NCBI GenBank assembly: GCA_023264975.1
Contig: JAHFUS010000008.1
Span: 7,219 to 71,218, forward strand
Source of the DNA: Actinomycetes bacterium
Lineage (GTDB): Bacteria; Actinomycetota; Acidimicrobiia; Acidimicrobiales; GCA-2861595
DNA length: 64,000 bases
Direction of reading: 5' to 3'
Both the position numbers and the translations under genes were made by a program. The notes below the pieces were generated by a model that saw nothing but the letters and a program-made list of their open reading frames with translations, searched no databases and was not told where the DNA came from. Below are positions 8,245-17,165 of this stretch, in pieces. The stretch's first letter is position 1; every line of letters begins with the position of its first letter.

Positions 8245-9222
8245 TCAGGGGTTGCGCATCATGAGCCGGAGCCTGGGCCCGAGCCAGGGCTTGCGGCCCC
8301 AAGCCAGCAGCTTCCCGGTGGCGATGGCGGTCCACTGGCTCTGGCGGTCCCACATCACGTCGAGCAAGGCGACGGGGTCGGCCAGGATGTAGCAGTCGAC
8401 CCGGCGGGTGTGCGGCTCAGCCACCGTGACGGCGCCGTCGTCGAACAGGAATTGAGCACGACCGCCGCCACGGAGACGAACCTCGTAGGTGGCCCGTACA
8501 CCGGCTGCCTTCTCCTGGTCCACCATCGAGCGCGGGTCGAGTTGGGAGATGACGGGGAGGAGGAAGCCCTGGATGGCCAGCGCGGCATGACGGCGGTTGC
8601 CGGGCCACGGCCGCCCTGCGGCTCGGGCGATGTCGGCGCCGTGCATGACCGTCTCGTTGAGCAGGTGGCAGGTGAAGGTGCACTGGTCGACGGTGGTGCC
8701 GGCCACCATCCACGGCGAGCGGTCGTCCCCCGACCGGCTCTCGCATTCACCGAAGTATTCGGCCGCCCGCGCCTCGATCCGGTCGGCCAGCACTTTCGGG
8801 TCTCGCTCGGGGTCATTGCCCACCGCCTCCGTCGTGGTGGCGCCCAACTCCCATACGTCGGCGATCAGCGACTCCCCGTTCCGGCCGCCATGGTCGGGCA
8901 GGACTTCGAAGACGCGCGACAGGTCGCGCCGGGCCATGGCGGGTACGGCCACCCAGGCCTGCGACAGGTGCATGGCCACGCCGCCGAGGTCCCAGTCGCC
9001 GACGGCGTGGCCGTGCGGGTCGCCTACCGAGCGGAGGAGGGCGACGACCCGGGACACCTCGGAACGGAGGGCGGCCTTCGCCGCGGACCACTCCACCGCG
9101 TACGCGCTCGCCACCGATGCCCCCTTGGCTGCCGGTGCCCGGCCGGAAGGCCGCCAAGCTACCCGCGGGCCAGCCGAAACCGTGCATTGGCTCTCGTCCT
9201 GAGCGGAAACGGGGCGTACCAT
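8245..9222 (-). CDS. DinB/maleylpyruvate-isomerase N-terminal domain (mycothiol-dependent family) protein with SCP2-like C-terminus
   Basis: WDLGGVAMHLSQAW and CHLLNETVMHGADIARA resemble the metal-binding His helices of the TIGR03083-type family. C-terminal GKLLAWGRKPWLGPRL. The start is uncertain; GTG at 9114 is an alternative. Confidence 0.6.
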   Translation of the reverse strand: MVRPVSAQDESQCTVSAGPRVAWRPSGRAPAAKGASVASAYAVEWSAAKAALRSEVSRVVALLRSVGDPHGHAVGDWDLGGVAMHLSQAWVAVPAMARRDLSRVFEVLPDHGGRNGESLIADVWELGATTTEAVGNDPERDPKVLADRIEARAAEYFGECESRSGDDRSPWMVAGTTVDQCTFTCHLLNETVMHGADIARAAGRPWPGNRRHAALAIQGFLLPVISQLDPRSMVDQEKAAGVRATYEVRLRGGGRAQFLFDDGAVTVAEPHTRRVDCYILADPVALLDVMWDRQSQWTAIATGKLLAWGRKPWLGPRLRLMMRNP

Positions 9223-9305
9223 GACGGCAGGAACGAAAGAGGGTGAGGCCCACCGCTCTGTTCGCGAAGGCGTTCGTCGGGCCCGCCGACGGGAACGAGA
9301 GAACC

Positions 9306-9569
9306 ATGATCGGCTTCATCGTGTTCGGGCTGGTGGTCGGAGCGCTGGCCAGGCTCATCGTCCCGGGCAGGCAGGAACTCTCCATCGGCATGACCCTGGT
9401 CCTGGGCGTGGTGGGCTCGGTGATCGGCGGCATCGTCGCCAACGCCATCGGCACCGGCGACATCTTCGAGCTGAACTTCATCGGCTCGGTGGTGGCCATC
9501 GCCGCGTCGGTTGTGCTCATCGTCGGCGGAACGAGGGTCGGGGCGATCCGCCGGCGTTTCTCCCGCTGA
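9306..9569 (+). CDS. GlsB/YeaQ/YmgE (transglycosylase-associated) family small membrane protein
   Basis: MIGFIVFGLVVGALARLIVPG...GVVGSVIGGIVANAIG is a typical Gly-zipper three-helix pattern. I chose the ATG at 9306 rather than the longer ORF start at 9243. Confidence 0.8.
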   Translation: MIGFIVFGLVVGALARLIVPGRQELSIGMTLVLGVVGSVIGGIVANAIGTGDIFELNFIGSVVAIAASVVLIVGGTRVGAIRRRFSR

Positions 9570-9601
9570 CCCTGCGGGCCGCCTGCACTCCGATCCGGCG
9601 G

Positions 9602-10438
9602 TCAGAGGAACGAGTCGAGAACCTCGTTGATCCCGGCCAGCACCGGTCCGTCGCCCAGCGAGATGCCGGCGCCGGCGCGGTCGGCCTCAACGATCCCGGG
9701 GTCGTCGGGGACGATCCCGGCCAGGGGGATACCAAAGCCGCGGGCGGCGTCGTGGAAGGTGACGGGGTCGAGTTGGCGCCCCTTGTTGCCGACGAGGGCG
9801 ACCCGCTCGATCCCGTGCCTGGTCGCCATGGTGAACATCCGCTCAGCGGTGACGGAGGACTTGCGGCTCGGTTCCATCACGATCAGCAGCAGGTCGGTGT
9901 GCGCCACCGTGCCACTCGATCGCTCCAGGTGATCGAGGCCGGCTTCGAGGTCGAGCAGGGCGACGTCGGCCTCGCCGTCGAGCGCCGCTGCCAACAGGCC
10001 GCGCGAGGACGCGTGGGCCGGGCACCAGCATCCCCCGGGGTCGTCGCTGACGCGCATGGCGTGGAGGAGGGTGACGCCCGACGGCGTGGTGGTCCCGAAG
10101 CTGGTTACCAGCTGGTCGGTCGTGACGGCGCCGCCTCCCCAGCCGGCCACCAACGCCCGGGGCACCTCTCGCGCCTGGTCCACTGCGGCCTGCGAGAGCC
10201 CCAGGCTGATGCCCAGGTTCGGACTCACGTCGGTGTCGACGGCCAGCGTGCGCAGTCCCCGCGACGCGCAGGCCATGGCCACCAGCGCGGTGACGGTGGT
10301 CTTTCCCGAACCGGTCTTGCCCGTGACACCGACTCTGATGGCTCCGGCCTCCTGCGTGGCTGGCGTTGCAAGCTTGCGGCGGCGACCATAGCCAGTGTGT
10401 GCAAGGACGCGCTGTTCCGGGCGGGCACCGGGCTCCAT
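9602..10438 (-). CDS. CooC-type (MinD/ParA superfamily) nickel-insertion accessory ATPase
   Basis: Deviant Walker A GVTGKTGSGKTT, and the CxC metal motif PGGCWCPAH expected of CooC. The start is ambiguous. ATG at 10438 is used here. A strong AGGAGG lies 8 nt before an ATC at 10339, which would give the canonical (M)RVGVTGK N-terminus. Confidence 0.7.
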   Translation of the reverse strand: MEPGARPEQRVLAHTGYGRRRKLATPATQEAGAIRVGVTGKTGSGKTTVTALVAMACASRGLRTLAVDTDVSPNLGISLGLSQAAVDQAREVPRALVAGWGGGAVTTDQLVTSFGTTTPSGVTLLHAMRVSDDPGGCWCPAHASSRGLLAAALDGEADVALLDLEAGLDHLERSSGTVAHTDLLLIVMEPSRKSSVTAERMFTMATRHGIERVALVGNKGRQLDPVTFHDAARGFGIPLAGIVPDDPGIVEADRAGAGISLGDGPVLAGINEVLDSFL

Positions 10439-10808
10439 CGACGACTCCATCGACGACGCCCTCGACGTGTTCCCCCCGCTGCGCAGGCTGCTCGACCGGC
10501 CCGCCGGCCTGCTCTCCGGTGGCCAGGCCCAGCAGCTGGCGATCGCCCGGGCGTTGGTCTCGAAGGCCCAGGTGCTGGTGCTCGACGAGCCCACCGAGGG
10601 CATCCAGCCGTCGATCATCATCGAGATCGAGGACGCCATAGCCGGCCTGCACGCGGCGGGGATGACGATCCTGCTGGTGGAGCAGTACGTGGAGTTCGCC
10701 CTGCGTCTGGCGCAGCGTCACGCGGTGATGGACGGCGGCCTCATCGCCCACTCGGGCGACACGGCGTCGGTCGACCTGGCCACGTTCTCGGATCTGCTCG
10801 CCGTCTGA
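10395..10808 (+). pseudogene. 3' fragment of a urea/branched-chain-type ABC ATPase (UrtE/LivF-like); the Walker A half is missing
   Basis: It encodes only LSGGQAQQLAIARAL, VLVLDEPTEGIQPSII and LLVEQY (signature, Walker B, H-loop). The upstream DNA is occupied by the opposite-strand CooC-like gene, and no Walker A is present in any + frame. Confidence 0.7.
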
Positions 10809-10811
10809 GAA

Positions 10812-11693
10812 TCAGCCCAGCCGGTCGCGCAGCAGGGCGGCCGCCTCCAGGGGGTCGCCGTAGTTGAGGCGCCATGCCTGCGCCTTGCGGGCCAGGGTGG
10901 CGAGCAGGTGGAAGGACTCGGTCGGGTGCTTGTAGTGGTTGAACGAGCGCTGGAACAACCAGGTCATGGCCTCGCCCCGGGGCGCCGGCGTCAGCTCGCA
11001 TCCTCGGGCGTCGCCGTCGAGGGCCGGTTGGAGGTGGACGATATGGGCCAGGTCGAGGGGTGCCGTCACCGTGCGCGCGCCAATCTGGTCGGCGGTGATG
11101 GCGACCTCGCCGTCTCCGAGCTCGATGCCGGCGATGTCGTCGAGTGCCACGGCGTGGCGACTCCACGGTGAGAGGGCGAGGGCGCGCGGGTAGGGGACCG
11201 GACGCCTCGTGGCCGGGTCGACGCACAGGGCCTCGTCGGACACGTAGTCGAAGCCGGCCACAAGCCCGGCGGCGGCGAACGTCGTCTTGCCGGTGCCCGA
11301 CGGTGCCGGGAAGGCGATGGCCGACGAACCGGAAGCGACGACGCCGGCATGCACAGCCAAGCCGGCGAAGGCGTCGATGGCGGCCTCGTTGACGGCCGTG
11401 AGGACCGCCGCCAGAGCGACGCCCGGCGGACCCGACACGTCGAGCTCGCCGGTGGTGGCGTGCAGGCAGCGGTCGTGGCCGTGCCGCTCACATCCGTCGA
11501 CGACCGCGTACCGCTTGGCCGAAGCCGGCCCACCGGCGACCTTCGGGAACGCCTCGAACAGCTGCGCGATGGCGGCGGCCACCTCGTTCGACGTGCAGGT
11601 GATCCGGAACGCTGTGCCGAGCAACTCCCAGGTGACGTCGTGGACGGATTCCCCGACGACAGGGCCGGCGGTATCGCCCCTGCCCGGCGTCAC
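10812..11693 (-). CDS. HprK-related (HPr kinase-like) P-loop serine kinase of the RiPP-accessory type
   Basis: P-loop FPAPSGTGKTT followed by GFDYVSDEAL. The GTG start overlaps the PqqD stop (GTGA, 11693-11690). No HPr or PTS context is present. Confidence 0.7.
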   Translation of the reverse strand: MTPGRGDTAGPVVGESVHDVTWELLGTAFRITCTSNEVAAAIAQLFEAFPKVAGGPASAKRYAVVDGCERHGHDRCLHATTGELDVSGPPGVALAAVLTAVNEAAIDAFAGLAVHAGVVASGSSAIAFPAPSGTGKTTFAAAGLVAGFDYVSDEALCVDPATRRPVPYPRALALSPWSRHAVALDDIAGIELGDGEVAITADQIGARTVTAPLDLAHIVHLQPALDGDARGCELTPAPRGEAMTWLFQRSFNHYKHPTESFHLLATLARKAQAWRLNYGDPLEAAALLRDRLG

Positions 11694-11974
11694 CCCCCGG
11701 CCGGCATAAGCAGGCCGTCGTCGCGCAAACGGCCGACGGTGGCGGCCACCTCGGCCCGAATGGACTCGGGGGTGGCGCCGTAGGCGACGGCCAGGGCGGC
11801 GACCACCCCGTCGAGGGTGAGCTCGCCGTCGCTGAGGCGCCAGACGTCGGCCGCCGTGGCGTTGAGGACGTAGACCTGGCTCGAGTCGGGATGGAGGAGG
11901 GCGATGCTCTCGTCGACCTCGGTCTCGACCACGCCGTGAACGGCTGGCCCGACCCTCGCACCGGCGTCGTCCAC
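11690..11974 (-). CDS. PqqD-family peptide chaperone (RiPP recognition element)
   Basis: 94 aa. SIALLHPDSSQVYVLNATAADVWRLSDGELTLDGVVAALAVAYG...IRAEVAATVGRLRDDGLL matches the PqqD/RRE winged-helix pattern. GTG start. Confidence 0.75.
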   Translation of the reverse strand: MDDAGARVGPAVHGVVETEVDESIALLHPDSSQVYVLNATAADVWRLSDGELTLDGVVAALAVAYGATPESIRAEVAATVGRLRDDGLLMPAGG

Positions 11975-12034
11975 GGTGCCGAGGCTACCGCTGTGGGGCG
12001 GCGGTGGTCTGGCGGACGGCAGTCAGCAATACGA

Positions 12035-12063
12035 TTGACTCATATTGGAAGAATTGCTACGCT
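12035..12063 (+). promoter_or_regulatory. Candidate sigma-70-type promoter (TTGACT-N17-TACGCT) facing the Tat-signal mini-ORF
   Basis: Hexamers read directly: TTGACT at 12035-12040, TACGCT at 12058-12063, 17-nt spacer. They lie inside a ~54% GC island; adjacent coding sequence is visibly more GC-rich. Confidence 0.3.
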
Positions 12064-12137
12064 GAGCGGTCAAGCGACCATTTCCCTTATCGAGCGGAAA
12101 CTCTGCGTGTCGAGGAAGCAGTGCTCACCGGACGTGT

Positions 12138-12157
12138 CAGAAGTTCTCTGACTTCTG
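12138..12157. repeat. Perfect 7-bp inverted repeat CAGAAGT-N6-ACTTCTG in the divergent control region
   Basis: Read directly. It lies between the candidate promoter and the ATG at 12224, so it could be an operator or a 5'-UTR hairpin. Confidence 0.5.
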
Positions 12158-12223
12158 GTTTGAGACCCGGATTTCGGGGAATAGATATGCGATCAGTGGC
12201 AGTCAAACTACTGGGGGCGGTAC

Positions 12224-12412
12224 ATGGACGAGAAGCGTGACGGTGGGTTGTCCCGGCGGGACGCGCTGAAGAGGGGCGCCGTCGTTGCCAGTGCGGCGTG
12301 GATCGCGCCGGCAGTGATGGCGCTGCCTGTGAGCAGCGCTTCGGCTGACTCCCCGAGTGGGACGTCGACGAAGCCGAAGAAGACCAAGGTGCACCTGCTG
12401 GGGAACCGCTAG
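12224..12412 (+). CDS. 62-aa mini-protein with twin-arginine (Tat) signal and a 21-aa Ser/Thr/Lys-rich tail
   Basis: GGGGGCGG lies 4 nt before the ATG. SRRDALK fits the S/T-R-R-x-F-L-K consensus. A hydrophobic region ends in ASA, leaving DSPSGTSTKPKKTKVHLLGNR. Third-codon positions are GC-rich, consistent with coding. Confidence 0.5.
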   Translation: MDEKRDGGLSRRDALKRGAVVASAAWIAPAVMALPVSSASADSPSGTSTKPKKTKVHLLGNR

Positions 12413-12455
12413 CACCGAGCCGTTCGGCGGCTGCGCTCCACCGCCGCCGGCATCG

Positions 12456-13667
12456 TCAGTGCGTGTGGCGCCGCTCCTCGGCGGCGATGGCCTCGAGGAA
12501 CTCTTGGCGGTCCGCATCCGAGCCTTCGTCATGGCGAGGCGAGTTCAGGCTGGTCGGGTCCATGTCGGGAGCGAATGGCGCCAGCGACAGCCTCGCCCTC
12601 GGTGGTAGGGCGGCGCGCAGCCGGCGCCGGAACTCGATCGCGGTCGACGCCGTGCCGGCGCGGGCGGACCGGGACAGGAGCAGGGCGATGGAGCGGCTCC
12701 CGCCGGACCGGGCAGGCGGGGCGACCAGGTCCACCGCCCCGCCCGCCACCAGATAGGCGCGCCCGCCCGCCATCGCCTCGGGCACGCCCGCGGGCACGGG
12801 CACGGCGAGGACCCTCCGGGCCCGGCTCAAGGCGAGGGCGACCGCCGGCCCCATGCCCCAGGAGCGGGCGCGGGCGACCAGGTCGTCCCAGTTCGCACCG
12901 CCGGCGATGACCCGTTCCAGGTCCTTGAGCCACACCAACCGGTGCCCACCTGACAGCGTGGCGTGCGCGCCCAGGTGGACGAGGGTGTCGAGCGGGTCGA
13001 GTGTGCGTATGGCCGTCCCCCCCACCCGGGCCGGTCGTGCCCGTTCCGCCAACTCGGCCATCGACGGCCTGAAGGTCCGCCGCACGGCCGGTCCGGTGAA
13101 CAGGTGCCAGTGGAGGTCGAGGAGCGTTTCGTGGCGGAGCCGGAGCAGCACTTCGCCCACCTGGAGCTCGCGCAGGAGCCGCCAGTTGCGGTCGAGCAGG
13201 GTCGCGCCCTGCTCCCCGAGTGCGGTCAGGACGTCGCCCACGGCACTGGCGGGCACCACGACGTCGAGATCCGAGTACGAGCGGAGATCGGGCCGGGTGT
13301 AGTGCAGCTCGGCCAGGACCGGCCCCTTCACCACCAGCCACGACACGCCCAGGGCGTCGAGGGTAGGGCCCAGCTGGGCCAGGTCGCCGAGCGCCCGCAC
13401 GTGGCGGTCCACGCCGCGGTGGTGGGCGGCGGCCAGCCCGGCGAAGCGCCCGGCGCTGACGACCGGGGCCAGGCTGTGGTGCACGCATCCGCTGACACCG
13501 TGGAACTCGGCGGCGGCGGCCACCCGGTCAGGTCCGGCCAGGTCGGCCAGTGCCGCCACACCGTCCGGCGCCGTGGCCCAGTCGTGTTCGGTCACGCATC
13601 GCCGGAGGAGCCGGGCCGTCGCCGTGGCCGCGCCCAGCACTCGGGACCGGCGGGCCGGCCCCGTCAC
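12456..13667 (-). CDS. Nucleotidyltransferase family protein (uncharacterised NTP_transf_5 / PF14907 type)
   Basis: YSDLDVVVP and LLDLHWHLF motifs. GTG at 13667 overlaps the CHAT gene stop (GTGA, 13667-13664), so I prefer this start to the 466-aa ORF start. Confidence 0.75.
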   Translation of the reverse strand: MTGPARRSRVLGAATATARLLRRCVTEHDWATAPDGVAALADLAGPDRVAAAAEFHGVSGCVHHSLAPVVSAGRFAGLAAAHHRGVDRHVRALGDLAQLGPTLDALGVSWLVVKGPVLAELHYTRPDLRSYSDLDVVVPASAVGDVLTALGEQGATLLDRNWRLLRELQVGEVLLRLRHETLLDLHWHLFTGPAVRRTFRPSMAELAERARPARVGGTAIRTLDPLDTLVHLGAHATLSGGHRLVWLKDLERVIAGGANWDDLVARARSWGMGPAVALALSRARRVLAVPVPAGVPEAMAGGRAYLVAGGAVDLVAPPARSGGSRSIALLLSRSARAGTASTAIEFRRRLRAALPPRARLSLAPFAPDMDPTSLNSPRHDEGSDADRQEFLEAIAAEERRHTH

Positions 13668-15943
13668 GTCGCGGGAGCGGGAGCGGCGGCGGCGGCGGCC
13701 TCCGGCTCGGTGAGGCGCAGGTGGGCCCAGCAGTGCGCGGTGTAGACGAGCCCGAAGAGGTTGCCCGACGCCAGGAAGTCGAAGCGGGCGGCCTGGAGGG
13801 CGGCGCCGATCTGTGCGTCGGGCTGCAGGAGGGCAGCGAAGAAGGCCTCGGCCCACGCCATGGCCTGGAGTTGGGGCACCTTCACTTCGGTGCCGATCAC
13901 CCCGACCGCGTTGCCGCCCCCCACGAAGGCGTCGACGTACGACACCAGGGTGGCCGGCGTGATCTCGAGCGAGTGGCAGGCGTTGATGACGACGAGCGGC
14001 CGCACCCGGTCCCAGATGACCTTGTTCTCGGCGAAGCCGGCGTCGAAGAGGTCGATGAGCTCGGTGGCCGTGATCTGCTCACGGTCGCCGACGGACAAGA
14101 AGGTGTCCGGGCTGCCGACCTGGTCCTTGTCGCCGTGGCAGTAGAAGTAGACAACCGGCAGGTCGGCCGACAAGAGGCCGAGGATGTCCTTCTTGGCGGC
14201 GCTCTCCTGCACCAGCACCCCGGCGAAGCGGGACTCGAACAGCGACCGCAGCTTCTGCACGTGGGCGGCCAGCGCCTTCTGGTCGACCTTCCTCGACTCG
14301 CCGACGGCCACCACCGCCTCGGGCGCGACCGGTATCGACGCAGTGGGGTCCTTGGAGGATGCGGGGGCCTCGATCATCTGGGTGAAGCCCCAAAAGCCGA
14401 ACGGGCAGAGCAGGTCCTTGGTGTGAGGCACGTCACCCGCCCGGGGGCAGGTGTCTGTGGGCCCGGCGACAAGGGGGCTGCGCTCGTCCCACTCCGTCAC
14501 CAGGGGGCACACGGGCACGTCGCGGACGTCGTCCGGCAGGCCGATCTCGTAGAGGTAGTTCCACGGCACGGTGAAGCGGACGTTGCGGGGCCGGGCGATG
14601 TGCACGATGGGCCTGGGTGACGTACGACGCAGCTCGCCGAGCACGTCGCGCGCCTGGAGGAACAACTGGCGGTAGAGCTGGCGGCCGAGCGGGGCCAGCT
14701 CCCGCAGGTCGTCGACGAGGTCCTCCTTCGTGCGCATCCGCTGGTCGGCGGCCCGGTAGACAAGGGCCTTGCGCAGGTCGCCCACCAGCGGGCCGATGGT
14801 GTCGTCGGGCAGCGAGAAGGCGGTGGCCTCCGCCGGCATCTCGCCAGGGGGGCGCAGCACGATGCCGTGGGCACCCCCGTCGTTCGTGTTGGTGACGATG
14901 CTGAAGCGAGGCGTGTCGGGGATGGTCTCGAGGTCGTCGAGTGCGGCCGACGCTGTGTAGTCGGTGGTGATGGTGAAGCCACCCGGTCCATCGAGGTCGG
15001 TGACGAGGACCTGTGACTGCACCGGAGCGTCGCGGTAGTAGTAGCCGATGCGGGCCCGTGCCGGGCCGGCCGCCGGCACCCGGAGGGCGACGTCGATCCA
15101 CGGCTGACCGCTGTCCAGCGCGGTCGCCGGGCTGCCGTCGGCAGGCAGATGGAACGCCTGCTCCACCGAGCGCTGGTCCCGGTCGAGGTCGTCGAACGTC
15201 GTCGCCACTGCGAAGTCGGCGCTGGTCACCAACACCCGCAGTTCGAGGTCGCGCTTGGGGAGCACTTCGTCGGGGAAGGCGACGGGCCCGGTCACGTGGG
15301 TGCCTCGGTCGAGAGGGCCGATGCTGAGGCGGAGGCGGAGATCGGCATGGGGAACCAGGGGAAGCGCCTCGTCGAGCCGTTCGCCTCCGCTGTCGGCGAC
15401 GACCGCGTTCGCGTACCTGGTGCGGGCCCGGACGGCGCGGGCGGGCGAGGGGGACTGGGGGCCCGGGAGCGGCGCGGGCGGCTTGCTCCTCGGCTTGGCC
15501 GGTGCCGGAGATGCTGGTGGAGGCAGGTTGCGACGAACGGGAGGTGAAGGCGGTAGTGCTGCGTCGGGAGTGTGGGGCGCGCCGCCGGGAAGGGACCGCG
15601 GAACCGGCTCCGGGATGAAGAGCTCGCCGGTCGGCAAGGGGTCCTCGTACGGCGGGACCGGAGGGAGGGGAGCGCTCTGGGGCGGCGAAGCCCCGGGCGT
15701 CGCGGCCGCGGGCTGAGCGGACTCTGGCGGGTGGGCCGGCACCGGCGGCGCCGACGGCGGGCCGGGCGAAGGAGGGGCGCCGACGGCGGGGCCGTGGCGC
15801 CGGCCGAGACGCGGCAGCCGGAAGCGGGGGAGCCTGGACGGCCCGCCGACGGTGGTGGGGCCTCCGGTCGAGCCCGGCCCGCGGAACAGACCGGAGAGGG
15901 CGGCCCCCACCGCCCTGATCCTGGCCAGCAGCCACTCGACCAT
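13664..15943 (-). CDS. CHAT-domain (caspase-like) protease with N-terminal helix, ~140-aa proline-rich spacer and an unassigned middle region
   Basis: C-terminal ~200 aa carry the His motif VVYFYCHGD and the Cys motif LVVINACHS. They are preceded by LCPFGFWGF. I recognised no TPR, NACHT or SAVED sensor. Confidence 0.8.
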   Translation of the reverse strand: MVEWLLARIRAVGAALSGLFRGPGSTGGPTTVGGPSRLPRFRLPRLGRRHGPAVGAPPSPGPPSAPPVPAHPPESAQPAAATPGASPPQSAPLPPVPPYEDPLPTGELFIPEPVPRSLPGGAPHTPDAALPPSPPVRRNLPPPASPAPAKPRSKPPAPLPGPQSPSPARAVRARTRYANAVVADSGGERLDEALPLVPHADLRLRLSIGPLDRGTHVTGPVAFPDEVLPKRDLELRVLVTSADFAVATTFDDLDRDQRSVEQAFHLPADGSPATALDSGQPWIDVALRVPAAGPARARIGYYYRDAPVQSQVLVTDLDGPGGFTITTDYTASAALDDLETIPDTPRFSIVTNTNDGGAHGIVLRPPGEMPAEATAFSLPDDTIGPLVGDLRKALVYRAADQRMRTKEDLVDDLRELAPLGRQLYRQLFLQARDVLGELRRTSPRPIVHIARPRNVRFTVPWNYLYEIGLPDDVRDVPVCPLVTEWDERSPLVAGPTDTCPRAGDVPHTKDLLCPFGFWGFTQMIEAPASSKDPTASIPVAPEAVVAVGESRKVDQKALAAHVQKLRSLFESRFAGVLVQESAAKKDILGLLSADLPVVYFYCHGDKDQVGSPDTFLSVGDREQITATELIDLFDAGFAENKVIWDRVRPLVVINACHSLEITPATLVSYVDAFVGGGNAVGVIGTEVKVPQLQAMAWAEAFFAALLQPDAQIGAALQAARFDFLASGNLFGLVYTAHCWAHLRLTEPEAAAAAAPAPAT

Positions 15944-16210
15944 TCAGTCTCCGCCCAGCCATCTGGTGTCCTTCAGAACGGTGACCCCGAGGATCAGGTA
16001 GCCGAAGAAGCCGACGAAGAGGCCGATGCTGTACCAGGCGAACAGGCGGGCGCCGTCGAACATGGTCGTCACGGCTGCGCCGCCAACGGCGCCGATCACC
16101 GAGGCGATGTCGGAGATGGCCACCGCCTCTCTGGAGCGGCGCAACGTGCGGTAGGTCACCCAGCCGATCACCACGCCGAAGCACCACGCGCCAGCGGCTT
16201 GGGTCTGCAT
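15944..16210 (-). CDS. Small (88 aa) predicted three-helix membrane protein, first gene of the CHAT operon
   Basis: Three hydrophobic stretches: WCFGVVIGWVTY, IASVIGAVGGAAVTTMF, WYSIGLFVGFFGYLILGVTVL. Its stop is directly followed by the CHAT start (TGAATG, 15946-15941). Confidence 0.6.
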   Translation of the reverse strand: MQTQAAGAWCFGVVIGWVTYRTLRRSREAVAISDIASVIGAVGGAAVTTMFDGARLFAWYSIGLFVGFFGYLILGVTVLKDTRWLGGD

Positions 16211-16314
16211 TCGGCCAACCCCTGTTCTCCGCCCGCCAGGACGGTCGCCGTCAACGTAGCCTTGGCGGCGGCCGTCGACTCGGCCCGCCGGACGCCGGGT
16301 AGGGTGGCGCCCCT

Positions 16315-16881
16315 ATGGCGTCCCAGGCCACCTTCGCCGCCCAGGCGATGGAGCACATGGGGTCGCTCTACGGGGCCGCCCTGCGCATGACCAGGAACCC
16401 GGCCGACGCCGAGGACCTCCTCCAGGAGACCTACCTGAAGGCGTACCGGTCGTTCGCCACGTTCCAGGAGGGAACCAACCTCAAGGCGTGGCTCTACCGC
16501 ATCCTCACCAACACCTTCATCAACTCGTACCGGGCCAAGAAGCGCCGCCCCGAGCAGACCGACGTCGAAGACGTGGAGGACCTCTACCTGTACCACCGCC
16601 TCGGCGGCCTGGAGGCGGCGGCGGCCGGGCGCAGCGCCGAGGAAGAGGTGCTCGACAGTTTCACCGACGACGAGGTGAAGCAGGCGCTCGAAGCACTGCC
16701 GGAGCAGTTCCGGATCGCCGTCCTCCTCGCCGACGTGGAGGGGTTCTCCTACAAGGAGATCGCTGAAATGACCGACGTCCCGATCGGCACGGTGATGAGC
16801 CGCCTGCACCGGGGAAGAAGGGCGCTCCAGAAGACGTTGTTCGACTTCGGTATGGAGCGCGGCCTCGTAGGAGAGCGTTAG
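16315..16881 (+). CDS. sigH: ECF sigma factor, SigH/SigR (thiol-stress) type
   Basis: Region 2 [17 protein letters not shown]...WLYRILTN. Region 4 [32 protein letters not shown] anti-sigma gene follows immediately. Confidence 0.9.
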
Positions 16882-17165
16882 TGATGGACGAAACCGCCCA
16901 CCACAAGTGCGCGGTCGCCGTGGAGCGGCTCTACCACTTCCTCGACCACGAGCTCGACGACGCCAGCGCGGCCGACGTCCAGCGCCACCTCGACGACTGT
17001 CTGCCTTGTCTGGAAGCGTTCGACTTCGAGCTCTCGTTGCGCGTGATGATCGCTTGCAAGTGCCGCGACCAGGTGCCCGAGATGGTGTGGATCCGCATCT
17101 GGAAAGCCATCCAGGGCGAGGGCGGCCCCGAAGAAGGCAATGGGGGAATGCTTCCCTCCGAGTGA
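16881..17165 (+). CDS. rshA: Zinc-associated anti-sigma factor (RsrA/RshA type)
   Basis: HxxxCxxC motif HLDDCLPC plus upstream Cys (HHKCAV). The start overlaps the sigH stop. Confidence 0.85.
   Translation: MMDETAHHKCAVAVERLYHFLDHELDDASAADVQRHLDDCLPCLEAFDFELSLRVMIACKCRDQVPEMVWIRIWKAIQGEGGPEEGNGGMLPSE

Follow-up and report, generated by a model that had tools for sequence, protein, structure and literature searches.

A four-gene PqqD–kinase module of an Acidimicrobiia-like actinobacterium is probably a variant of the LPP pathway with a twin-arginine signal as leader

A PqqD-family protein and an HprK-like P-loop kinase are encoded as a coupled pair at positions 10812–11974 of the window, a stretch of 64,000 nucleotides of DNA from an Acidimicrobiia-like actinobacterium with groundwater as its source. 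Comparison of this stretch with related loci indicates that the two genes form the core of an intact module of four genes and are neither an orphan pair nor a remnant. With a probability of roughly 70%, the locus is a complete module of the type found in the clusters for linear polyphosphorylated peptides (LPPs; genes lppA-K-B-S-D-N in Paenibacillus alginolyticus DSM5050; Popov et al., Nat Commun 2026; PMC13381572). PqqD would bind the leader of a small precursor, the kinase would (poly)phosphorylate Ser45 of this precursor, a nucleotidyltransferase would decorate the phosphate, and the twin-arginine translocation (Tat) pathway and signal peptidase I would export and cleave the product. Most likely, the module is an actinobacterial variant of the LPP pathway in which a Tat signal serves as leader. 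This reading draws on observed gene content, conservation, co-localisation, motif geometry, selection, folds and catalytic motifs, from which we infer the biochemical steps, the modified residue and the export route.

The module consists of a nucleotidyltransferase gene of the NTP_transf_5 family (PF14907), a small open reading frame (ORF) on the opposite strand, the PqqD gene and the kinase gene (Table 1), and this order is the same in three related loci, L001, L002/L003 and L004, whose kinases are 84%, 66% and 46% (by BLASTP) identical to that of the window. L004 carries the module between completely different genes. A scan of one genome per species has given 80 further loci; in about 40 of these, a phmmer search with the 62-aa product of the window ORF alone detects an N-terminus resembling its own next to PqqD. 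A hidden Markov model (HMM) of the leader, built from the phmmer matches, detects at least one leader ORF in 39 of the 48 core loci (kinase E<1e-18) versus 1 of the 34 distant loci, and several of the nine core loci without a leader ORF have the kinase at a contig edge. None of the 48 leader matches in the core loci is more than 1.6 kb away from the kinase, although the zone so defined makes up only 29% of the bases searched. In a maximum-likelihood tree with lasso-linked loci as outgroups, the window kinase falls into a clade with a Shimodaira–Hasegawa-like approximate likelihood ratio test (SH-aLRT) value of 95, together with the kinases of the leader-linked loci L001, L002 and L004 and of the contig-edge locus L018. 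The leader-linked label is clustered on this tree, requiring 10 changes versus 23 expected, and none of 500 shuffles is as low.

A preliminary description, made from the DNA letters alone, had presented PqqD and the P-loop kinase (PAPSGTGKTT) as an orphan pair with the kinase as the only coupled partner. Its statements about the sequence itself check out. The PqqD stop and the GTG start of the kinase share 4 nt at 11690–11693, since the + strand reads tcac there, which is GTGA on the − strand, and 3 bp separate the end of the kinase stop codon (10812) from the end of a convergent, truncated ABC ORF (10808). However, the nucleotidyltransferase partner had been missed, which lies upstream on the same strand; among the 48 core loci, 29 have a member of its PF14907 family next to the pair.

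The same description had proposed that the pair may be left over from a larger cluster, and an explicit form of this idea is a decayed lasso peptide cluster that has lost its cyclase and B2 protease, perhaps in the rearrangement that truncated the ABC gene (urtE), leaving non-functional accessory genes behind. The same three accessory genes do occur in paeninodin-type lasso clusters, and the distant kinase relatives in L054, L066, L078, L079 and L081 are found near Asn-synthase-like genes. A scar is indeed present: the nearest relative has an intact UrtE of 231 aa, of which only residues 112–231 align in the window (tblastn), and nucleotide synteny with the relatives ends at 10446/7, 366 bp downstream of the kinase stop, so this breakpoint looks like a rearrangement scar. 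However, because homology with the relatives spans the whole module up to 10447, the scar lies just outside it, and the four genes are full-length with their motifs intact. The module also recurs with unrelated flanks in L004 and in about 40 loci without an Asn-synthase-like cyclase. The Asn-synthase-like PP-loop motif SGG[LIVMF]DS is present in no ORF of the core loci L001–L050, and ORFs that carry it occur only in distant loci with a weak kinase match (L054, L066, L078, L079, L081, L083 and L084), the PP-loop-motif ORF of L073 looking from its sequence like an NAD synthetase and not a cyclase. When the 292 neighbouring proteins of the 48 core loci, derived from crude gene calls based on G+C content at third codon positions (GC3), were clustered, the recurrent clusters contained neither a cyclase nor a B2 protease, and no signal peptidase or ABC exporter either. 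A decayed lasso cluster is thus a very improbable origin.

The small ORF of the module lies between the PqqD and nucleotidyltransferase genes and encodes the 62-aa protein MDEKRDGGLSRRDALKRGAVVASAAWIAPAVMALPVSSASADSPSGTSTKPKKTKVHLLGNR. This protein scores 17.3 bits against the TIGR01409 TAT_signal model, over the cut-off of 16.7 bits, and contains a Tat-type motif (consensus S/T-R-R-x-F-L-K), S10-R-R-D-A-L-K16 with the twin arginines R11-R12, a stretch of hydrophobic residues from 19 to 36 and a signal-peptidase site at A39-S40-A41. An RRE-binding WxxPxV motif of the lasso/LPP type (RRE, RiPP recognition element; RiPPs, ribosomally synthesised peptides with post-translational modifications) is present as WIAPAV at residues 26–31 (W26, P29 and V31; W codon at 12299–12301). 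Ser45 (codon at 12356–12358) is located 19 residues past W26 and 4 residues past the predicted AxA cut, and the predicted mature peptide is DSPSGTSTKPKKTKVHLLGNR, the precursor ending in Arg. Over 39 aligned precursor codons, the window and L002 differ at 22 bases, 18 of them at third positions and none at second positions, giving 16 synonymous versus 3 non-synonymous codon changes. This pattern of base changes indicates that the precursor ORF is a real gene under purifying selection. A Shine–Dalgarno-like sequence, GGGGGCGG, stands immediately 5' of its ATG at 12213–12220, and an alignment of four relatives shows that (G/A)GGGGCGG(G/T) is kept 5' of the ATG and that the remaining upstream region diverges.

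The preliminary description had named two candidate substrates, of which the precursor ORF is the conserved and probably the correct one. The other, a 39-codon ORF at 12087–12206 on the − strand, has been rejected as a substrate; it has no counterpart in L002 or L004 and is not conserved beyond the nearest relative, showing 65% amino-acid versus 92.5% nucleotide identity to L001. The intergenic region at 11975–12223, within which this ORF lies, has no Rfam match, an RNA fold z-score of −0.8, no sign of a structured RNA or riboswitch and no match to the sigma-70 consensus promoter. A perfect 7-bp inverted repeat, CAGAAGT-N6-ACTTCTG, is located at 12138–12157 (+), about 70–85 nt 5' of the precursor ATG. 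In L001 and L002 the repeat survives only in part. It could be an operator or a hairpin; a terminator scan flagged it, although it is upstream of the gene.

Statistics on the leader have been obtained from 50 non-redundant family members. A [W/F/Y]xxPx[V/I/L/M] motif is present in 50 of 50 leaders, 15–16 residues after the twin arginines, with W in 88% and P at +3 in 100%, percentages that are partly selected for because the leader HMM was built from matches to the window precursor. Relative to the aromatic residue, Ala is found at +13 in 90% and at +15 in 98% of the leaders, corresponding to an AxA signal-peptidase-I site, and Ser is found at exactly +19 in 48 of 50 leaders (96%). Mean pairwise identity is 43% from W−10 to W+19 and 10% over the next 20 residues.

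What follows the leader varies widely. The C-termini of the family comprise 8 short Gly/His/Lys-rich tails, including those of the window clade, 23 domains of 65–280 aa with at least 4 Cys, and at least 8 Pro-rich proteins that end in a sorting signal of the sortase type, made up of LPxTG or LAxTG, a run of hydrophobic residues and a basic tail. Leader proteins with LPxTG/LAxTG stand beside PqqD in L010, L027, L030, L031, L034, L036, L040, L045, L047 and L067 and appear to be sortase substrates. Since a sortase substrate has to be brought across the membrane and no second signal is present in these proteins, their shared N-terminus presumably must act as an export signal. In L006–L008, L011–L013, L016, L019, L024, L028, L041 and other loci, leader proteins with a Cys-rich domain of 100–280 aa are encoded two or three at a time. 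Some of the Cys-rich leader proteins end in ISH[VI]E[FL][IVL]..CC, and such loci often hold two PqqD genes.

These features bear on the alternative that the genes are neighbours and not partners: the small protein with the Tat signal would be secreted like any other and syntenic by chance, and the other three proteins would have as their target either a peptide from another locus or something that is no peptide, for example a polymer of the cell envelope. The neighbourhood leaves some room for this, because the recurrent neighbours, besides NTP_transf_5 (29 loci), further leader proteins, PqqD, LuxR-type regulators, ABC ATPases and Mfd, include NAD-dependent epimerases, family-2 glycosyltransferases, methyltransferases and polysaccharide deacetylases, and LPP clusters are also located in polysaccharide loci (PMC13381572). 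However, the leader ORFs of the 39 core loci vary in order and strand and are always within 1.6 kb of the kinase, the leader has the [Y/W]xxPx[V/L] motif bound by discrete RREs, and conservation drops sharply right past the conserved Ser. Mere neighbourhood is therefore a poor explanation for this arrangement.

The kinase has the motifs H115-A116-G, Walker A P129-x2-S-G-x-G-K-T, with the P-loop PAPSGTGKTT at residues 129–138, and Y150-V-S-D-E-A-L-C157. The residues H115-A116, S132, G133, G135 and K136 of Walker A, and Y150-V-S-D-E-A-L-C157 are invariant across 31 homologues. The order of motifs, H-x-G, GxSGxGK[ST] and then an acidic motif, is that of HprK/P. No Pfam match is obtained for the kinase even at E<=10, neither Hpr_kinase_N nor Hpr_kinase_C, and its best NCBIfam match is TIGR04352 HprK_rel_A (E 2.7e-18, 66.1 bits), below the cut-off of 200 bits. 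The best profile match among solved structures is the P-loop of phosphoenolpyruvate carboxykinase (PEPCK), at E 0.11. An AlphaFold2 model with a mean predicted local distance difference test score (pLDDT) of 91.9 is placed by Foldseek with ATP-dependent PEP carboxykinases (E 1.7e-5; template-modelling score TMq ~0.5) and with the C-terminal domain of HprK/P (3tqf, 1kkl and 2qmh; probability 0.93–1.0, TMt 0.39–0.52). By this model, the kinase belongs to the PEPCK/HprK P-loop superfamily and is not a close relative of HprK/P, and the invariant Walker A and S-D-E motifs together with a fold like those of PEPCK and HprK/P make it look active.

The preliminary description had allowed for a housekeeping HprK/P, which would act in carbon catabolite control through HPr. 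Apart from the shared P-loop arrangement and a weak structural similarity to the C-terminal domain of HprK/P, nothing points to this role, and there is no Hpr_kinase_N or Hpr_kinase_C Pfam match and no significant match to a solved HprK/P. The gene is translationally coupled to an RRE, and the family always stands beside PqqD and leader ORFs, so that the likelihood of a housekeeping enzyme is close to negligible. A word-indexed search finds 156 kinase homologues at E<=1e-3, almost all in Acidimicrobiia or in Actinomycetota metagenome bins, and a search with the 31-sequence profile gives 684 clusters of 50% identity at E<=1e-30 and 7,201 at E<=1e-10. The homologues P0010, P0012, P0013 and others are annotated with PF27840.1, the window kinase being without a Pfam match. 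L013 has a second, divergent copy of the kinase at 8773–9810, and in the distant loci L053, L060 and L078 the PqqD-like and kinase matches fall within one long stop-to-stop ORF, suggesting RRE–kinase fusions.

PqqD matches Pfam PF05402 with E 8.8e-16. Among NCBIfam models it reaches 34 bits with lasso_PqqD_Strm and 25.3 bits (E 2.3e-5) with PqqD_rel_X (TIGR04353; cut-off 35 bits), both below cut-off, and its best sequence matches among solved structures are the lasso B1 proteins TbiB1 and TfuB1 (E 0.03–0.05), ahead of PqqD proper. These family matches identify it as a discrete RRE, analogous to lasso B1 proteins and LppB. The nucleotidyltransferase is matched by PF14907 with E 2.2e-34, and its start overlaps the stop of the gene upstream, which encodes a CHAT protein. 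Residues K114, G115, P116, R129, D133, D135, D184, H186, H235 and D249 are invariant in 18 homologues. Its AlphaFold2 model (pLDDT 91.0) is similar by Foldseek to MenT1, ANT(2'')-Ia, LnuA and the ribitol-phosphate transferase FKRP, which is the Pol-beta-like nucleotidyltransferase (NTase) fold, and with D133-x-D135 kept in this predicted fold the enzyme looks active. PsmN, the PF14907 enzyme of the pseudomycoidin pathway, was modelled on the ANT(2'')-Ia family too (PMC6993621).

Of the proteins encoded in the LPP clusters, LppB is an RRE in discrete form, LppK is HprK-like and a kinase, LppN is an NTP transferase that has not been characterised, LppS is a signal peptidase I of the archaeal (SipW-like) type and LppD is an exporter resembling MsbA; a cyclase is not among them (PMC13381572). 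Their precursors, 35–200 aa long, vary greatly towards the C-terminus but are conserved at the N-terminus (YxxPxVLxHQxIxFETxxS); in crystal structures, the RRE is seen bound to [Y/W]xxP, and LppK puts up to four phosphates on Ser3 of the core, 18 residues past the Tyr (PMC13381572). LppS, a signal-peptidase-I homologue and the feature by which the LPP family was discovered, requires the RRE and favours the phosphorylated precursor, and LppN was inactive in the heterologous host (PMC13381572). LPPs and paeninodins are stated to be restricted to Bacillota and to be of unknown function (PMC13381572). In the biosynthesis of pseudomycoidin, PsmK phosphorylates the C-terminal Ser, an activity that needs D158/D159, the equivalent of the acidic motif, and PsmN attaches one or two hexoses, for which the peptide must already be phosphorylated (PMC6993621).

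The window module shares with the LPP system an RRE as a discrete protein, an HprK-like kinase and a PF14907-type NTP transferase without a macrolactam synthetase, an aromatic-xx-P-x-V motif in the conserved N-terminus, hypervariable C-termini ranging from short peptides to proteins of about 200 aa, a conserved Ser 18–19 residues after the aromatic residue and 3–4 after the leader cut, and, as predicted here, removal of the leader by signal-peptidase-I-type chemistry. It differs in that the leader is a twin-arginine signal with AxA, Trp replaces Tyr and the VLxHQxIxFET consensus is not shared, that the host belongs to Actinomycetota (Acidimicrobiia) and not to Bacillota, that the precursor gene is usually divergent from the RRE–kinase operon, and that some substrates are LPxTG-anchored or Cys-rich domain proteins. 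Since two defining genes, those of LppS and LppD, are absent, the module is not an LPP member by the published definition; by analogy it is treated here as working like the LPP system. With the paeninodin (PadeK) and pseudomycoidin (PsmK/PsmN) systems it shares an HprK-family kinase acting on a precursor Ser, which is presumed here, a PF14907 enzyme and a split, B1-type RRE for a [Y/W]xxP leader (PMC6993621), whereas the cyclase (C) and the transglutaminase-like B2 protease are absent here and the target Ser of lasso peptides is C-terminal, unlike the conserved Ser near the leader junction. The HPr-rel-A system (TIGR04352/TIGR04353) is a catalogued RRE-plus-kinase pairing of unknown function with no substrate in the library text. 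The window pair scores below its curated cut-offs, and because both scores are far under them, it is regarded as a divergent sister branch and not as an equivalog.

In the proposed mechanism, the substrate would be the 62-aa product of ORF 12224–12412, whose N-terminal 41 residues would be a RiPP leader and a twin-arginine signal peptide at once. The discrete RRE (PqqD) would bind W26-P29-V31 in the hydrophobic part of the signal and present the bound precursor to the HprK-like kinase, which would transfer one or more phosphates onto Ser45. The enzyme of the PF14907 NTase fold may then add a group to the Ser45 phosphate; if PsmN is a guide, an NDP-activated donor would supply a hexose or a phospho-alcohol for this step. 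The general Tat pathway would export the precursor and signal peptidase I would cut after A41, the two replacing LppD and LppS, to release a 21-residue cationic phospho-peptide, DSPS(P)GTSTKPKKTKVHLLGNR. Searches for motifs of TatA, signal peptidase I and sortase in the window by regular expressions, a weak test, gave nothing credible. The LPP precedent, the same set of enzymes and a precursor with a similar leader motif suggest that RRE-guided phosphorylation is probably right as the main chemistry, as the preliminary description had proposed.

A different chemistry on the same substrate is also conceivable, in which for example the P-loop protein activates the donor of the NTase or modifies another residue, or the NTase nucleotidylates the peptide. 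Consistent with this, the best folds of the kinase are those of PEP carboxykinases and not of protein kinases, among the folds nearest to the NTase are those of MenT1, which is a tRNA nucleotidyltransferase toxin, of the antibiotic adenylyltransferases ANT(2'')-Ia and LnuA and of FKRP, and LppN had no detectable activity in the LPP study (PMC13381572). However, every characterised kinase of the group (PadeK, PsmK and LppK) phosphorylates a Ser of the precursor peptide, and beyond the leader just one residue is nearly invariant, a Ser whose spacing from the RRE motif is fixed, mirroring Ser3 of LPPs. A departure from Ser phosphorylation is unlikely on this balance, although less so than the other alternatives considered here.

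Several observations weigh against an LPP-type mechanism, beginning with the partial selection of the leader percentages given above. The conserved Ser is at W+19 in this family versus Y+18 in LPPs. An LppS-like peptidase is found neither at 8245–17165 of the window nor in the called genes of L001–L004 nor in the ten largest recurrent neighbour clusters (48 loci; singletons listed in part). As for an LppD-like exporter, the only ABC gene nearby is the truncated urtE, which belongs to a urea-transporter ATPase, and L001–L004 have no ABC_membrane neighbour. No precedent was found for an RRE that binds within a signal peptide's hydrophobic core. Of all the steps, that of the NTase is the weakest, because LppN was without activity in the only LPP study. 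The kinase and PqqD both fall below the HPr-rel-A equivalog cut-offs of NCBIfam (66 vs 200 and 25 vs 35 bits). Searches of the kinase against solved HprK/P structures, with the single sequence and with the 31-sequence profile, gave nothing significant, so its relation to HprK is taken from the fold comparison, and the label 'HprK-like' rests on motif order, a sub-threshold family match and fold. Finally, the locus occurs in DNA runs only, and three metatranscriptomes of the same study have no contig over 10700–16300, a comparison of contigs only that does not show absence of expression.

There is a tentative possibility, somewhat less than even, that the twin-arginine signal doubles as the RiPP leader in a stricter sense, the RRE serving as a chaperone for export proofreading, which would keep the precursor cytoplasmic as long as the kinase and the NTase have not yet decorated the Ser at +4 from the cut. 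Redox enzyme maturation proteins (REMPs) of the Tat pathway such as TorD, DmsD and NapD are cytoplasmic proteins that bind the twin-arginine signal before export while the cargo matures. Their fold is unrelated to the winged helix-turn-helix (wHTH) RRE, and they supervise cofactor insertion and not covalent peptide modification, so that the analogy is functional only. Because the same leader heads short peptides, LPxTG Pro-rich proteins and Cys-rich domains of 100–280 aa, this possibility would extend to a general route for the phosphorylation or phosphoglycosylation of secreted and cell-wall proteins before export in Actinomycetota, beyond a pathway for peptide natural products. Literature searches on HprK-related kinases, on PF14907/NTP_transf_5 and on Tat with PqqD turned up no Tat-leader system, and the RRE-Finder paper does not mention kinases.

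The genes that flank the module appear to be separate from it (Table 1). Only the window, L001 and L002/L003 have the CHAT gene and the gene of an 88-aa membrane protein alongside the cassette. L004 and the remaining loci do not, and both genes have been rejected as parts of the module; because of this limited distribution, they look like a separate module fused into the operon. A 2.8-kb stretch of L001 (700–3518), encoding a 685-aa Astacin/BTRD1 protein and a 113-aa ORF and located between the genes of an extracytoplasmic function (ECF) sigma factor and the 88-aa membrane protein, is missing at window 16296–16303. On the other side, the urtDCBA and urease accessory genes that follow urtE in L001 and L002 are absent here.

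Table 1. Features of the module and its surroundings, in window coordinates
Feature	Position	Strand	Remarks
MinD/CooC-like P-loop ATPase	9602–10639	opposite strand to urtE	left of breakpoint 10446/7; unrelated
Truncated urtE ABC ORF	10395–10808	+	TIGR03410 E 8.6e-42, C-terminal half only
HprK-like P-loop kinase	10812–11693	−	293 aa; putative LppK/PsmK analogue
PqqD-family RRE	11690–11974	−	94 aa; PF05402 match
Intergenic region, divergent, 249 bp	11975–12223		between PqqD–kinase operon and precursor gene
Precursor gene, 62 aa	12224–12412	+	TIGR01409 match; orthologues in L001, L002 and L004
PF14907 (NTP_transf_5) nucleotidyltransferase, ~403 aa	12456–13667	−	putative LppN/PsmN analogue
CHAT (caspase-like) protein, 759 aa	13664–15943	−	stop overlaps NTP_transf_5 start
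Predicted membrane protein, 88 aa	15944–16210	−	precedes CHAT gene

LPPs were described only in May 2026, and the window together with about 40 related loci would represent a sister system in Acidimicrobiia and other Actinomycetota. If the proposed mechanism is correct, it would link the recognition of RiPP leaders to general protein export, with a defined target residue, Ser45, and a short product of 21 residues, and the module would provide a second, simpler context for finding the reaction of PF14907 enzymes. It would also suggest that RiPP-type machinery can act on secreted proteins that fold and on targets of sortase.

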